Shown here piece by piece: positions 1-64,000 of a stretch of 64,000 nt of DNA (the first letter of the stretch is position 1; every line of letters starts with the position of its first letter). The position numbers were made by a program, and so were the translations under genes. The notes below the pieces were generated by a model. The model was not told the DNA's origin. It did not search any database and worked only from the letters and a program-made list of their open reading frames with translations. The DNA is from an uncultured Gammaproteobacteria bacterium (GTDB lineage Bacteria > Patescibacteriota > Patescibacteriia > UBA9934). The DNA is taken from the NCBI GenBank assembly GCA_964452565.1, contig CAYVLY010000001.1:224351-288350 (forward strand), written 5' to 3'.

Positions 1-894
1 CCAAAGGATCATCTAGAGCTCTCAAAGGCGCTCAATCTCTTAGACACCGAGCGAGGCACAAAGGTTGCAGGTTTCAGAGGTTACTTCCTCAAGAATGATC
101 TTATGATGATGCACTTAGCGCTAATGACAATGGCGTTAACTAAACTTCAGGATAAGGGCTTTGAGCTTATGGCCTGCCCATCAATTGTTCGTGAGATGCC
201 ACTGATTGGATCAGGACACTTCCCAGGCGAACGCAGTGAGATCTACGAAGTGCAGGACTTTACAGACGGTAAAAAAGAAACAAAATACCTATCAGGTACC
301 AGTGAACCAGCACTGCTTGCATATCATGCTGACGAAGTATTGGACGAGAAAGATCTTCCAATTAAGCTGGCTGGCTTTTCATCATGTTATCGTCGCGAGA
401 TCGGATCTCACGGTAAAGATACAAAAGGCATCTATCGAGTTCATGAATTCCACAAGGTAGAGCAGGTTGTATTCTGCAAGAATAATGTTAAAGAGGGGTT
501 GGATTGGCTAGAAATAATAAGAAAGAATTCAGAAGAGCTTTTGCAAGAACTTGGGCTTCCATATCGAGTCGTAAGCATGTGCACTGGCGATATGGGAACA
601 GGGAAGTACAAAATGTACGACATTGAGACATGGATGCCATCTCGAAATGCATATGGAGAGACACACTCTGCATCATATCTAACAGACTGGCAGGCACGCA
701 GAATTGGAATTCGCTACAAAGACTCAGATGGAAACATACAGTTCGCGCATACCCTAAACAATACACTTATAGCATCACCTAGGATTCTTATTGCTATTTT
801 GGAGAACTTTCAACAGGAAGATGGGTCTGTGATTATCCCTGAGGTACTTCATAGCTACATGGGCGGCAAAGAACGGCTTATTCTTGCAAAATAG
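1..894 (+). CDS. serS: seryl-tRNA synthetase, C-terminal catalytic part (5-prime end outside window)
   Basis: Frame 1 is open from base 1. Class II aaRS core motifs are visible (GFRGYFLKND, TSEPAL, FSSCYRRE, GIYRVHEFHKVEQ); ends TAA at 894. Confidence 0.85.
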   Translation, partial: PKDHLELSKALNLLDTERGTKVAGFRGYFLKNDLMMMHLALMTMALTKLQDKGFELMACPSIVREMPLIGSGHFPGERSEIYEVQDFTDGKKETKYLSGTSEPALLAYHADEVLDEKDLPIKLAGFSSCYRREIGSHGKDTKGIYRVHEFHKVEQVVFCKNNVKEGLDWLEIIRKNSEELLQELGLPYRVVSMCTGDMGTGKYKMYDIETWMPSRNAYGETHSASYLTDWQARRIGIRYKDSDGNIQFAHTLNNTLIASPRILIAILENFQQEDGSVIIPEVLHSYMGGKERLILAK

Positions 895-2044
895 TATGGG
901 CTCAGAGCGGACAAAGACCTGGGTCGAGGTTGACGCAGGAGCATATCAACACAACATCCAAGCAATTCGGTCACTTCTGCAACCAGAGGTGACCTTTTGT
1001 TCTGTTATAAAAGCTAATGCTTATGGGTATGGGCTAAATACAATGGCCAAGCTTGGGCTTCAGAATAATCTCAAACATTTTGCAGTTGACTCAATCGACG
1101 AGGCTGAGCAACTTAGACGCATCACACCCGAATCAACAATATTCATTTTGGGATTCACTGTTGAAGATCGATTATCTGATGTTGTACGACTCGGATGTGT
1201 ACAAACCGTTTATGACGAACAAACGGTTCGCATTTTGGGCGAAGAGGCCATAAAACAACAAGTTCCGGCCCTTGTATCGATTAAAGTCGAAACCGGGACA
1301 CAGAGGCAAGGGATCAGTGAGCGCGACTTTAAGTATCTTCTCTCAGCAGTTGAAAAAGAAAAGGGAAGTGTAATGCTTGTAGGACTTGGATCGCACTTCT
1401 CATCTTCAGAAGATGTTACAAAACAACAGATTACTAAAGATCAAGATAATCGTTTTGAAGCCTACGTGACGGAATGTGATCAGTTTGGACTTAAACCAAC
1501 GTTCACTCACATATCGTGCAGCGCTTCGACTATTTTGTATCCAGAAACGCATAAATCACTTGTACGCATCGGACTATCACAATATGGCATGTGGCCATCT
1601 GAGGGCGTAAAGACTCAAAAGTCAAACAAGCAACCATCTTTCAAACTAAGGCCGATCATATCGTGGAAAACTTGCATAGCTCAAGTTAAAGATATTGGAA
1701 GCGGCATGCCAGTCGGGTATGATCAGACCTTTATTAGCGATCGTCCAATGCGCATTGCAGTATTGCCGGTTGGGTATTACGATGGACTTGTAAGAAGCTT
1801 ATCGCACAAATCACATGTGATTGTTAAGGGCCAAAAATGCCGCATTCTTGGCAATATTTGTATGAATATGTGCATTGTGGATATCTCTGTGCTACCACAG
1901 GTTAAACCCGGTGATGTAGCTACAATCTTGGGTCGGGATGGAATGCATGAGATTACGGCTGAAGATCATGCCAGGTGGTCTGATACGATTAACTATGAAG
2001 TTACGACGCGGATCAACCCACTGCTGCCGAGGGTGATTATCTAA
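884..2044 (+). CDS. alr: alanine racemase (PLP-dependent)
   Basis: VIKANAYGYG PLP-lysine motif near the N-terminus, about 386 aa, typical Alr length. Overlaps the serS stop by 11 nt. Confidence 0.8.
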   Translation: MQNSMGSERTKTWVEVDAGAYQHNIQAIRSLLQPEVTFCSVIKANAYGYGLNTMAKLGLQNNLKHFAVDSIDEAEQLRRITPESTIFILGFTVEDRLSDVVRLGCVQTVYDEQTVRILGEEAIKQQVPALVSIKVETGTQRQGISERDFKYLLSAVEKEKGSVMLVGLGSHFSSSEDVTKQQITKDQDNRFEAYVTECDQFGLKPTFTHISCSASTILYPETHKSLVRIGLSQYGMWPSEGVKTQKSNKQPSFKLRPIISWKTCIAQVKDIGSGMPVGYDQTFISDRPMRIAVLPVGYYDGLVRSLSHKSHVIVKGQKCRILGNICMNMCIVDISVLPQVKPGDVATILGRDGMHEITAEDHARWSDTINYEVTTRINPLLPRVII

Positions 2045-2053
2045 ATCTAAACC

Positions 2054-2159
2054 CTCCCCCTTACCAAGGGGGAGATGGAGGGGGTTTTGCCAGCGATCTT
2101 GATTCGATCGAATTCGATCAAACGGCAACCACCCCTAACCCCTCCTTGGGAAGGAGGGG
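2054..2159. repeat. composite GC-rich palindromic element: two inverted copies of the hairpin+GGGGGTTGCC unit flanking a GATCGAATTCGATC palindrome
   Basis: CTCCCCCTTACCAAGGGGGAG-ATGGAGGGGGTTTTGCC ... GCAACCACCCCTAA-CCCCTCCTTGGGAAGGAGGGG. The same unit recurs at 4870, 10419, 23710, 30051 and 54770/54828. Confidence 0.7.
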
Positions 2160-2167
2160 AACCGAAC

Positions 2168-62138: not shown

Positions 62139-62195
62139 TGTGGATAGAATAAAACCGCCAATACTAGCGGCTCCAATCTTTCTTATCAAACTTTT

Positions 62196-62633
62196 CTAAA
62201 CTTTTCGCAAATCATCCTCAGTAACAGTAAATCCAAGAGCTACGTCTACCATATCCTCTGAGACCTCAAACTTTGTAAGTCGGAGAATCTCTCCATGCGA
62301 CGACTCATACTCCCTAAACTCAACAGTATCAAGTTGCTCACCTTCTTCATCTAAAACCTTCCCTTCGCCTTCAAGTGAAAACTCATAGTCGTCCCCAGCA
62401 TATGAAACAGCGTCATCGGTTGGCTCAAGATCCTCGTCAATATCTTGAAACATTCTCACCTCTTCTGAATCAGAGTCGATTGAGAGCCAAACATGATCCT
62501 CTCCATGGACCCAATACTCGGTCTCCCCAGTTGAAAGGTGGATTATATCGATCTTTGATGGTTGAAAGGTCTTACCTTTTACCATAATTGGTTGCTCATT
62601 TTTGAGCGCCTTGAGTGCATCTAATACGTTCAT
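62196..62633 (-). CDS. hypothetical acidic protein
   Basis: ATG at 62633 (MNVLDALKAL). The ORF track extends to a TTG at 62714. Confidence 0.4.
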   Translation of the reverse strand: MNVLDALKALKNEQPIMVKGKTFQPSKIDIIHLSTGETEYWVHGEDHVWLSIDSDSEEVRMFQDIDEDLEPTDDAVSYAGDDYEFSLEGEGKVLDEEGEQLDTVEFREYESSHGEILRLTKFEVSEDMVDVALGFTVTEDDLRKV

Positions 62634-62860
62634 AATAATATTCAAAAAATAGTCTGATCGCAGTATAGCAATTTTTCTTCTGCTGTAAAGGGGGTATTGG
62701 ACTGCTATTGACAATATATAAAAAATGTAGTAACCTCATTATCCCACTTCGTGCTTGGTGAACCCTCACCAGAGTATGGCTAGCGCAGGAGACCATCCTT
62801 ACTAGGCACGGAGGAGGTGTACATGAACCCTGCCCCGACCTGCGCTCGGGGCTTCTTTTT

Positions 62861-63850
62861 TTAATAATCTAATCCCCCACGCGCTTGCACTCCAGAATAA
62901 AAGTAATGCTTTTTCATCTTTGCCTCTGTAACTAAGTGGGCGGCTCTGAGAAGATCTGGCTCTGGGTGTCGCCCTGTCATAAGAACCTCAACTCCTAATT
63001 TTCGATTCTCAATTGCATCGATCACCTCCTTTGACCCTAACATTCCCAGCGCAACGGTTGAGTTGATCTCATCAAGCACTACAAAATTATACTGACCTGA
63101 CTCCATAGCCTTTCGAGCCTCCTGCAATCCAAGCTGAGCCTCTGATCGATCCTGATCATTAATATCAAAATCAAACTTACCTGTTACTGGATCAATTCGA
63201 TCGCGCCCAGTTGCAACATAGTTAATTGACCTGATTTGATCTAAAGTCTTACGTTCATTGTAATGATCACTACCACCCTTGTCGAAAAATATAATCTTAA
63301 CCTTCTTGCCAGCACCTGCTGCACGCACTGCCTGGCCAATACCAGACGTGGTCTTTCCCTTTCCCTCTCCGTGAATCAACTGCACAAGCCCATAACCCTT
63401 ATGTCCTATGATCCTTTCATCAGGCTGTGGAAGAGACGCAAACTCACGATATGCGTCAATCACATCAACTACATATCCATTGATATCATCTGCCAGTCTG
63501 TTACGCGGATCAATCCACCTATATTCCTTATGCTCCCAAGAGAGGCTGATGTCCTCATCCTCGATCTTAACAGTATAAAAAGTCTTAAGCACATCCTCAC
63601 GCGCCATGTCGCCAAATCCTTTAGCCATTTGTTGGTGAAACATTTGTGCTTCGCGTTTATCAATATGCACGCCAGTTTCTTCAAGCACTTCACGAACCAA
63701 ACAATCAAGTGGCTCTTCTCCCTGCTCCATCATTCCACCGGGCAGATCCCAATCCTCGCCATATTCATTTGGATTTGAACTTCGCAACAACAAAACCTTT
63801 CCAAGTCGATTAACTAATAGTGCCTTGTGTGAGTTGTAGAGTTTATGCAT
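62861..63850 (-). CDS. fusion protein: N-terminal NUDIX hydrolase + C-terminal CobO/BtuR-like P-loop domain
   Basis: NUDIX box GGMMEQGEEPLDCLVREVLEETGV. C-terminal GEGKGKTTSGIG P-loop and ...YFYSGVQARGG tail typical of corrinoid adenosyltransferase-like proteins. Confidence 0.6.
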   Translation of the reverse strand: MHKLYNSHKALLVNRLGKVLLLRSSNPNEYGEDWDLPGGMMEQGEEPLDCLVREVLEETGVHIDKREAQMFHQQMAKGFGDMAREDVLKTFYTVKIEDEDISLSWEHKEYRWIDPRNRLADDINGYVVDVIDAYREFASLPQPDERIIGHKGYGLVQLIHGEGKGKTTSGIGQAVRAAGAGKKVKIIFFDKGGSDHYNERKTLDQIRSINYVATGRDRIDPVTGKFDFDINDQDRSEAQLGLQEARKAMESGQYNFVVLDEINSTVALGMLGSKEVIDAIENRKLGVEVLMTGRHPEPDLLRAAHLVTEAKMKKHYFYSGVQARGGLDY

Positions 63851-64000
63851 ACTTTTTGAGGTAATCACCAAGAGCCTCTGCAATCTTTGGCTTATATTGA
63901 TTTACATCAATGGCGCGAGGATCAACCCACTCAAACTCAACATGTTCATCTGAGCACTTGGGATTGACGCTTCCGACCTTTACACGATAGATGAAGGCTG
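63843..64000 (-). CDS. 3-prime end of an upstream gene (5-prime part outside window); C-terminus ...EFEWVDPRAIDVNQYKPKIAEALGDYLKKYA
   Basis: Open frame running to the window edge. The stop overlaps the next gene start in ATGCATAA. Confidence 0.4.
   Translation of the reverse strand, partial: AFIYRVKVGSVNPKCSDEHVEFEWVDPRAIDVNQYKPKIAEALGDYLKKYA

Follow-up and report, generated by a model that had tools for sequence, protein, structure and literature searches.

The window analysed here, a stretch of 64,000 nucleotides from contig CAYVLY010000001.1 of assembly GCA_964452565.1 (positions 224,351 to 288,350 of the forward strand), has an AT-rich backbone of housekeeping genes into which short islands rich in guanine plus cytosine (GC) are set; we hold, with moderate confidence, that these islands are accessory cassettes received from high-GC bacteria on different occasions, with one native RNA gene among them. 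The backbone encodes SerRS, Alr, GltX, ClpB, PriA, Def, Fmt, RpoA, AlaRS, MurJ, and Era, along with ribosomal proteins S13, S11, S4, L17, L13, and S9, an RNase J-like protein, Dus, and RimK; AlaRS (34198-36021) is only 607 aa long, with the catalytic core and the second additional domain and without the long C-terminal extension. An exact look-up of Fmt gave no entry on record. A scan of species-representative genomes with Era led to Candidatus Uhrbacteria and Patescibacteria metagenome-assembled genomes at 83-84% protein identity, and a single NCBI contig of 709,517 bp carries both island and backbone proteins. The window comes from a real chromosome of about 0.71 Mb, that of a member of Candidatus Uhrbacteria, which belong to the Patescibacteria or candidate phyla radiation (CPR).

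The compositional mosaic of the window is confirmed. In a 500-bp profile, plateaus of 0.53-0.62 GC rise over a background of 0.38-0.47, and a two-state hidden Markov model (HMM) of GC content returned ten high-GC segments (Table 1), coinciding with nine islands that an earlier note, made from the sequence alone, had marked. Together the segments make up 13,016 bp, or 20.3% of the window, at 56.5% GC against 42.7% for the backbone, and the log-likelihood ratio per island is 20-92 nats. Windows of 500 bp with a GC content of at least 0.53 number 169 out of 1271 in the real sequence; 100 order-2 Markov simulations gave 0.35 such windows per sequence on average and never more than 7. GC content at third codon positions (GC3) is 0.386 ± 0.041 in backbone genes, with a maximum of 0.47, and 0.68 ± 0.115 in island genes, where it ranges continuously from 0.52 to 0.91; there is zero overlap between the two groups (Mann-Whitney p = 3e-10). 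The picture of GC-rich islands in an AT-rich backbone drawn in the earlier note is upheld by sliding GC, the HMM, GC3, and the simulations alike. Its island spans match the HMM segments, except that island 6 reaches to about 48015 and not 47415 and that island 2, GC-rich as described, is split by an AT-rich gap (14387-14610), its first part being non-coding; backbone genes are AT-rich as it said, but they measure 38-46% GC and do not go down to 35%, the lower end of the 35-45% that it had given.

Table 1. High-GC segments and features of the window (ECF, extracytoplasmic function; ORF, open reading frame; SD, Shine-Dalgarno)
Feature	Coordinates	Strand	GC content or remarks
Island 1, HMM segment	4939-7244		57.1% GC
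Island 2a, HMM segment	13928-14386		60.3% GC
Island 2b, HMM segment	14611-16028		59.9% GC
Island 3, HMM segment	21842-22325		57.4% GC
Island 4, HMM segment	28105-30088		53.3% GC
Island 5, HMM segment	43076-43804		56.4% GC
Island 6, HMM segment	45945-48015		57.6% GC
Island 7, HMM segment	49054-50636		54.1% GC
Island 8, HMM segment	51798-52596		58.2% GC
Island 9, HMM segment	56956-58138		55.5% GC
Island 1, 759-aa Pro/Glu/Asp/Ala-rich protein	4982-7261	-	Two internal repeats of ~135 aa; C-terminal coiled coil
ECF sigma factor, 291 aa	7343-8218	-	43% GC, backbone-like; NCBIfam TIGR02937
Island 2a, candidate structured non-coding RNA, ~480 nt	13917-14398	+	After clpB
Island 2b, 168-aa predicted lipoprotein	14683-15189	-	Signal peptide ending in TPGC lipobox; GC3 0.85
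Island 2b, 88-aa gene	15431-15697	-	GC3 0.78; frame plot, ORF, SD motif
Island 2b, 54-aa hydrophobic gene	15843-16007	-	GC3 0.91; frame plot, ORF, SD motif
Island 3, single 152-aa predicted lipoprotein cassette	21864-22322	+	SD GGAAGGAG
Island 4, span	28165-29961	-	Three genes
Island 4, 97-aa Cys-rich protein	28165-28458	-	
Island 4, ECF sigma factor, 187 aa	28586-29149	-	Pfam PF04542, PF08281 (ORF 28586-29155)
Island 4, ECF sigma factor, 215 aa	29314-29961	-	Pfam PF04542, PF08281 (ORF 29314-30000)
Island 5, 205-aa protein with Pro-rich tail	43130-43747	+	Between SpoU and TrmA-like methyltransferase genes
Island 6	45925-47923	+	Three tandem paralogues (110, 149, 159 aa) and a 131-aa membrane protein
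Island 7, 114-aa coiled-coil predicted lipoprotein	49096-49440	+	GC3 0.80
Island 7, 318-aa protein	49607-50563	+	
Island 8, 95-aa gene	51857-52144	-	Cassette in 51798-52596
Island 8, 87-aa gene	52273-52536	-	Cassette in 51798-52596
Island 9, 178-aa histidine-phosphatase-like protein	56942-57478	+	Weak Pfam His_Phos_1 match; terminator 57503-57533
Island 9, second gene, 150 aa	57632-58084	+	Most likely call; TTGACG-N17-TACAAA at 57541-57569 upstream
37-nt hairpin element, five copies	2123-2159, 23709-23745, 30050-30086, 54768-54804, 54805-54841		

The two gene classes differ in expression signals besides composition. All 19 island genes stand alone, with an upstream spacer of at least 43 nt, and 18 of them are preceded by an SD core spanning 4 nt or more, a share that falls to 9 of 32 in the backbone (Fisher p = 2e-6); the earlier observation that the islands use SD sequences and the backbone often does without them is borne out, as is the count of two for the promoter-like TTGACG-N17-TACAAA, which occurs at 45862 and 57541 and nowhere else in the window. 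Several island genes have a sigma-70-type promoter-like site with a -35 element TTGAC(A/G), together with a GC hairpin terminator. The backbone is packed in operons, 24 of 48 genes lying within 40 nt of the upstream gene; among the 24 with longer spacers, 10 lack an SD and carry a -10-like hexamer, TANNNT, that ends 4-13 nt ahead of the ATG, which suggests that their mRNAs are leaderless (starts of this type lie, for example, at 4845, 11021, 54896, 58195, and 62093).

Island products are lineage restricted and comprise three predicted lipoproteins, two ECF sigma factors, two small hydrophobic proteins, three tandem paralogues, and a Pro/Glu-rich protein. Nearly all of them are without a match in Pfam, in PHROG, or among PDB sequences, in line with the accessory or unknown functions that had been assigned to the islands before; the only domain matches come from island 4, with its two ECF sigma factors, and from island 9, with a weak histidine-phosphatase match. 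In PHROGs, the island-4 sigma matched families of sigma factors, and beyond these the island proteins gave just two marginal matches (E about 0.003-0.005), and PDB sequence searches with three island proteins gave no match.

Contigs from other sequencing runs and another assembler cover part of the window. The Logan contigs L007 (SRR8146440; 9,556 bp, window 45246-54801) and L092 (SRR8146441; 19,049 bp, window 20913-39961) are each 100% identical to it, and their combined 28.6 kb cross both edges of islands 3, 4, 6, 7, and 8, ten edges in all. Independently assembled relatives (L001-L004, L011, L012, L020, L021, and L093) have the same low/high mosaic at syntenic intergenic sites; most other CPR loci retrieved via GltX are without it. 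The backbone is syntenic with the relatives; their own backbones range between 34% and 47.5% GC, and their islands all lie at about 55-63%.

Foreign origin is clearest for the 215-aa ECF sigma factor of island 4. Its closest homologues are many, at 65-72% protein identity and 73-74% nucleotide identity, and lie in non-CPR genomes of 69-72% GC with a GC3 of 0.90-0.94. In all four homologues whose context was compared (P0003, P0006, P0007, and P0021), which represent four lineages, the sigma gene directly follows polA, and the two with 10-kb flanks have a conserved order of SurA, MreB, acyl-CoA dehydrogenase, PolA, and sigma, then DnaE. Because the gene is native in the high-GC genomes and foreign in the window, the direction of transfer was into the Uhrbacterium, and sequence comparison demonstrates that this sigma gene was acquired from high-GC bacteria. 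The protein resembles RpoE-like ECF sigma factors in its sigma-70 region 2 and region 4 domains and is 53-72% identical to many of them; it differs in that island 4 has no recognisable adjacent anti-sigma gene, and the 420-446-aa and 166-aa proteins that follow the sigma gene in the donor clade are both missing in the window. In a neighbour-joining tree, the sigma genes of the window and of L093 are sisters in 0 of 200 bootstrap replicates, and the two proteins have three derived residues in common (Val in FRVLV, Asp in EGDVM, and one other); they may go back to either a single acquisition or independent ones. BLASTP gives 55% identity between the island-4 sigma and its paralogue, the ECF sigma factor at 7343-8218, whose backbone composition shows that amelioration is possible in this genome. 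The donor lineage was also looked for in the same samples, and its co-occurrence there was not demonstrated.

Codon usage in the islands leans toward the same kind of source. Pooled relative synonymous codon usage (RSCU) of the island genes correlates at 0.77 with the donor lineage and at -0.26 with the backbone and is fitted by I = 0.47 B + 0.50 D, where I, B, and D stand for islands, backbone, and donor; GC skew at third positions, at -0.13 for the islands, matches the -0.16 of the donor lineage and is opposite in sign to the +0.22 of the backbone, the islands preferring C and the backbone G. Any high-GC genome would fit similarly, so codon usage supports high-GC donors generally and not one lineage. 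Recoding of the island proteins one by one in the codon usage of the backbone splits their GC excess, on average +0.137, into +0.054 from amino-acid composition (about 40%) and +0.083 from synonymous choice; the synonymous component is positive in 19 of 19 island genes, and both components are positive in essentially all. Glycine, alanine, arginine, and proline (GARP) residues account for 29.6% of island proteins and 22.2% of backbone proteins, and in island 1 (56.8% GC) the amino-acid component dominates, with +0.086 against +0.053 from codon choice.

Some of the cassettes come and go among the relatives. The sigma gene at 7343-8218 and island 1, which sits directly downstream of it, form a lineage-specific insertion of 3.4 kb that is missing in L009, L010, L011, L012, and L020, where gltX abuts an M23 peptidase gene. 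Island 3 is missing in L093, which has only the shared bidirectional terminator between fmt and the gene for a 534-aa protein, and a GC-rich insert of 330 bp is present in L003 and not in L004, two contigs that are 95% identical over the adjoining 3 kb. Beyond those 3 kb the pair falls to 84% identity for 2 kb, and indels occur where segments are GC-rich; this sharp mosaic suggests recombination between Uhrbacteria strains.

Most islands, to judge from these comparisons, are old and syntenic, with proteins far more diverged than their surroundings: island proteins are 30-57% identical between relatives where backbone proteins are 65-92% identical. Same-site homologues of islands 5, 6, 7, and 8 in L001-L004 are 30-45% identical, against 65-85% for the backbone proteins there; they include a syntenic homologue of island 5 (L001 3511-3981; 31% identical, 57% GC), homologues of island 6 in L001 and L002 (30-45% identical, GC3 0.62-0.80), syntenic orthologues of the 318-aa island-7 protein in L003 and L004 (44% identity), and two homologues of the 95-aa island-8 protein in L001. 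At the island-4 site in L093, between rpsI and a flippase gene, the sigma genes are 57% and 28% identical and the third gene is unrelated; the genes flanking it are 81-90% identical and the backbone neighbours overall 76-92%. The site equivalent to island 9 holds a different gene in L002 (203 aa, 53% GC). The island-2 lipoprotein and its counterpart in L020 (2031-2576) share 33% amino-acid identity between flanking non-coding blocks that are 83-88% identical, and in three cases, namely this lipoprotein and islands 6 and 8, the non-coding ends are better kept than the coding bodies. Set against L093 in the case of island 4, and against L001 and L002 in the case of islands 6 and 8, these loci fit the description of a flexible genomic island, with a fixed site and variable content. 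Replacement and additive flexible genomic islands at fixed positions, reportedly described by Rodriguez-Valera and colleagues, are said to be defined at the population level within species; islands 4, 6, and 8 resemble them in their hypervariable content, with analogous divergent genes between conserved flanks, and differ in that the pattern in the window is found between relatives at the level of genus or family and involves a strong GC contrast and cassettes that are very small.

Island 2a is a candidate gene for a structured non-coding RNA. It is preceded by TTGACA (13882-13887), N17, and TTTAAT (13905-13910) and closed by a hairpin-plus-U terminator (14359-14398), and codon periodicity is absent from the segment 13910-14390 in a GC frame plot; strand calls from the plot are too noisy where GC at first positions exceeds GC3, and it was used only for this non-periodicity and for the choice of genes in island 2. 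The minimum free energy of the RNA segment has a z-score of -3.3 against shuffles. Homologues lie beside clpB in L009 (2600-3060, minus strand) and L020 (5440-5960, minus strand), the latter with tRNA-Ala directly after it. A closing helix of 10 bp is conserved (GGCUGCGGGG with CCCCGCAGCC, 14081-14090 with 14269-14278); 82% of cells in the alignment are paired, and compensatory pairs number 21 of 47, against 9.6 in shuffles and 1-9 when partners were slid, a moderate degree of support, the structure having been derived from the same three sequences that were used to test it. Rfam 15 gave no match to the RNA, whether at the gathering score, at E<=5 for the entire window, or at E<=10 for a stretch of 571 nt; ARAGORN found no transfer-messenger RNA, and nhmmer with the RNA alignment found no further members over about 90 loci. 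Since the segment is probably an RNA gene, this part of island 2 would be GC-rich for structural reasons and not through foreignness.

The other islands show a variety of layouts. In the 759-aa protein of island 1 the repeats are also seen in the DNA (5982-6066/6684-6768 and 6202-6285/6847-6930), and Pfam, PHROG, PDB sequence, and plasmid tblastn searches with it gave no match. The predicted lipoproteins of islands 3 and 7 have the signal peptide MKRTL...GCPKQ in common. The third predicted lipoprotein, that of island 2b, has a terminator at about 14600-14640 that is conserved with L020, and upstream of the gene lies an 82-nt hairpin (15258-15339, minus strand) with an 18-bp stem and a loop of about 30 nt with CTCTCACTCCAC; its counterpart in L020 (about 1874-1955) is 83% identical, compared with 33% for the lipoprotein itself, and the hairpin may be a leader or regulatory element. 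No homologues of the 88-aa and 54-aa genes of island 2b were found, and this stretch of about 750 bp is missing in L020. Island 3 has a promoter-like TTGACA (21774-21779) and TAATCT (21797-21802) and is bracketed by a 25-nt inverted repeat (21805-21829/22370-22394, 84% complementary) that extends from the predicted start of the 5' untranslated region (UTR) to just before the shared terminator; the repeat could serve 5'-3' UTR pairing or could be the terminal repeats of a mobile cassette.

The paralogues of island 6 share a ...VFPEGP... motif, with a TTGACG-N17-TACAAA promoter-like site at 45862-45890 and identical 25-nt terminators at 46777-46801 and 47391-47415. Island 8 lies immediately 3' of tRNA-Ser(UGA) (51666-51742), and a search for direct repeats of the 3' end of this tRNA gave none. 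Its two cassettes have a common 3' end of 51 nt, terminator included (51802-51852/52219-52269, 92% identical), and a common 5' end of 33 nt including the SD and start (52125-52157/52517-52549), around coding bodies that are unrelated. In island 9 an antisense ORF (57608-58063) is an alternative to the second gene, the sense gene being the most likely. The 318-aa protein of island 7 belongs to an uncharacterised family that a HMMER scan found in 88 representative clusters, with members of about 280-315 aa and a conserved EQRP motif; Pfam gave nothing consistent on 57 members, and a word-index search with the protein retrieved no sequence but its own. An AlphaFold2 model of this protein (pLDDT 83.4, pTM 0.71) has an N-terminal alpha/beta domain and a helical C-terminal half, for which Foldseek found no significant fold match in the PDB; a likeness of the N-terminal domain to type III secretion chaperones was rejected, the best Foldseek E value being 0.07 and not significant.

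Short repeats are scattered over the window. A GC-rich 37-nt hairpin element, GGCAACCCCCTCTAYCTCCCCCTTCGRAAGGGGGAG, occurs in five copies of up to 92% identity, one lying within a 544-aa ORF and another in the interval that separates rpsI from the island-4 sigma gene, and looks like a repetitive extragenic palindromic (REP) sequence or a miniature inverted-repeat transposable element (MITE). A palindrome, TACCAACGTTTAACGTTGGTA, is found at 14430-14456 and 62112-62138 (93% identical over 27 nt), with a weaker copy at 57558-57584; one copy adjoins the upstream side of a 639-aa gene starting at 62093, and the palindrome may be an operator. Palindromes of the form GTTGAAC...GTTCAAC lie upstream of clpB (11083-11115) and upstream of the SpoU methylase gene on its island-5 side (42990-43028), and TTAGCACTC, a motif like a half-site of the CIRCE element (controlling inverted repeat of chaperone expression), stands right before the clpB start (11150-11170).

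Several findings weigh against simple acquisition of the islands from outside. An outside donor is demonstrated for only 1 of the 19 island genes, and for the other 18 an incomplete set of homology searches detected no homologue beyond Uhrbacteria-like sequences; the 88-cluster family of the 318-aa protein is of mixed composition, with no obvious high-GC source. Islands 2b, 4, 5, 6, 7, and 8 occupy the same sites in diverged relatives. Pfam and PHROG scans of the island proteins found no integrase or transposase at any island, and there are neither attachment-type repeats at tRNA-Ser nor terminal repeats common across islands. The dinucleotide signatures of islands and backbone are fairly alike (TA 0.66 in both, delta* 63), and amino-acid composition supplies its sizeable share of the GC excess.

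The persistence of high GC bears on the same question. Four-fold degenerate sites of the backbone are near saturation (identity 0.387 versus 0.293 expected from composition, n = 1475), as are the 228 such sites of seven island orthologue pairs (0.325 versus 0.284 expected), and GC content at these sites (GC4) is nonetheless 0.61 in the islands and 0.29 in the backbone. Neutral decay even from an ancestor of 100% GC needs an identity of at least 0.43 (binomial P = 9e-4), under a simple model and with alignments at 31-57% amino-acid identity, which inflate apparent saturation. The island-2 lipoprotein gene has a GC3 of 0.85 in the window (43% GC; backbone GC3 about 0.38), and its orthologue has one of 0.88 in L020 (34% GC; backbone GC3 about 0.24). 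Neutral amelioration does not account for the retained GC, in which selection, biased gene conversion, or repeated replacement must have a part; a site could also have been filled anew by independent re-acquisition, without long-term retention. In the amelioration model of foreign DNA, said to go back to Lawrence and Ochman in 1997 and summarised in PMC5303225, composition should converge: the graded GC3 of 0.52-0.91 and the intermediate RSCU of the islands resemble stages of amelioration, whereas the island orthologues are saturated and still differ from the backbone in GC4. The repeated acquisition from a high-GC donor that the earlier note had proposed is sustained for the 215-aa sigma gene, with its closest homologues in 69-72% GC genomes, and plausible for most of the other genes, but recent repeated acquisition does not fit most islands, which are old, syntenic, and saturated yet GC-rich, and the evidence does not extend to a single donor for all.

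Acquired cassettes of differing age nevertheless remain the account that we favour. The backbone is interrupted at nine or more intergenic sites by cassettes of 0.5-2.3 kb and 53-60% GC, which in this account are made up of accessory genes from high-GC bacteria that probably arrived at different times, as the spread of GC3 suggests. A high-GC source is demonstrated for the island-4 sigma, and codon usage is consistent with one for the remaining islands; the structured RNA gene would be native, its GC-richness structural, and GARP-rich protein composition accounts for some 40% of the GC excess. Once resident, the cassettes act as hypervariable loci at fixed positions, with proteins that diverge two to three times faster than the backbone; tandem duplication occurs, as does replacement or loss in certain lineages. 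Their sigma factors could act in accessory regulation and their lipoproteins and small membrane proteins in a variable cell envelope and in contact with the environment or host.

A different account, which we regard as unlikely but worth keeping in view, takes the islands as an old, vertically inherited compartment of fast-evolving envelope and regulatory genes at a separate GC equilibrium and not as foreign; candidate mechanisms are selection on mRNA or DNA properties of leadered, SD-dependent expression and GC-biased gene conversion at recombination-prone loci. Syntenic islands that stay at about 55-63% GC beside relatives' backbones of 34-47.5% agree with it, as do the GC4 of 0.61 at saturated synonymous sites, the high GC3 of both lipoprotein orthologues, the better-kept cassette ends, the L003/L004 mosaic, and the backbone-like dinucleotide signature; it has to contend, however, with an island-4 sigma that groups with native genes of 69-72% GC non-CPR genomes, with the presence and absence of islands 1 and 3 among relatives, and with a continuous GC3 range such as different ages would give. 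The backbone-like sigma at 7343-8218 indicates further that the gene family does not dictate GC-richness, and to our knowledge the effects of GC-biased gene conversion reported in bacteria amount to only a few GC3 points, not 30. A related idea, which we put forward tentatively and think doubtful, is a GC-rich compartment of stand-alone, SD-led cassettes, with genes for envelope proteins and sigma factors, that does not ameliorate and would be kept so by ongoing gene flow from one high-GC lineage or by an unrecognised GC-favouring force confined to these loci.

That the islands are remnants of mobile elements, whether prophages, plasmids, integrative islets, or MITE-like cassettes, is very unlikely: island 8, the only one next to a tRNA, abuts tRNA-Ser and its cassettes share ends, and island 3, the only one with flanking inverted repeats, is missing in L093, but no integrase, transposase, or phage protein was seen, the phage and plasmid collections yielded no match (among them 50,697 phage records searched by blastn with 45800-52700), and the repeats expected at the tRNA or in common across islands are absent. 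We find it just as improbable that the islands have no common cause and that their GC excess is a by-product of Pro/Ala/Gly/Glu-rich proteins and a structured RNA; island 2a and the amino-acid component, most of it in island 1, would be explained in this way, but the synonymous component is the larger, is positive in every island gene, and goes with non-overlapping GC3, so this reading is insufficient as a full explanation and is a partial contributor. An assembly or binning chimera, the alternative raised in the earlier note, in which pieces of a high-GC organism would have been spliced into a CPR contig, has next to no chance of being correct and is refuted as far as sequence data allow, since compositional contrast alone speaks for it, while two runs and another assembler reproduce 28.6 kb and ten island edges at 100%, the syntenic mosaic recurs in at least eight independent assemblies, the edges are intergenic spacers with intact flanking genes and shared terminators and promoter-like sites, and we know of no assembler failure mode that would give nine interleaved inserts of 0.5-2.3 kb.

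The islands can be set beside known patterns of gene transfer. In 125 Patescibacteria genomes from an aquifer, horizontally acquired regions make up as much as 13% of genome length, non-CPR bacteria figure as donors, and the transferred genes include some with a role in transcription (PMC12455944). Like those genomic islands, the cassettes of the window are compositionally atypical acquired regions with a non-CPR donor; unlike them, they are units of one or a few genes and 0.5-2.3 kb, without mobility genes, that fill 20% of 64 kb, are all shifted to higher GC, and are for the most part positionally conserved across deep divergence. Core genomes were found to be GC-richer than accessory genomes in 36 species (PMC5303225); core and accessory genes likewise differ in composition and GC variance in the window, but the direction is reversed, the accessory cassettes lying 14 GC points and 30 GC3 points above the core. 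The islands are of the same kind as documented horizontal gene transfer in Patescibacteria and unusual in being tiny, dense, without mobility genes, and GC-richer than the core, with both position and composition kept in most of them across deep divergence.

The partners of CPR bacteria and the routes of gene flow into them are mostly unknown, and one cassette in this window traces to a lineage of 69-72% GC; if the pattern holds genome-wide, it would give a testable lead to the donor and a possible host. Should gene flow from one lineage be what keeps the cassettes GC-rich, the lineage with the polA-linked sigma gene, that of GCA_046766335.1 and GCA_043814015.1, would be a candidate source and might be a host or prey organism; for a CPR bacterium that has not been cultivated, the partner could then be predicted from cassette composition and phylogeny, with sequence as the only input. 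The analysis also brought to light the RNA candidate of island 2a, about 480 nt long and conserved in relatives, and the 88-cluster protein family, whose predicted fold is confident. Cassettes that stay GC-richer after saturation offer a natural test case of amelioration against selection or biased gene conversion, and the contrast between leadered, SD-dependent cassettes and a leaderless or translationally coupled backbone suggests that two expression regimes may operate in one small genome.

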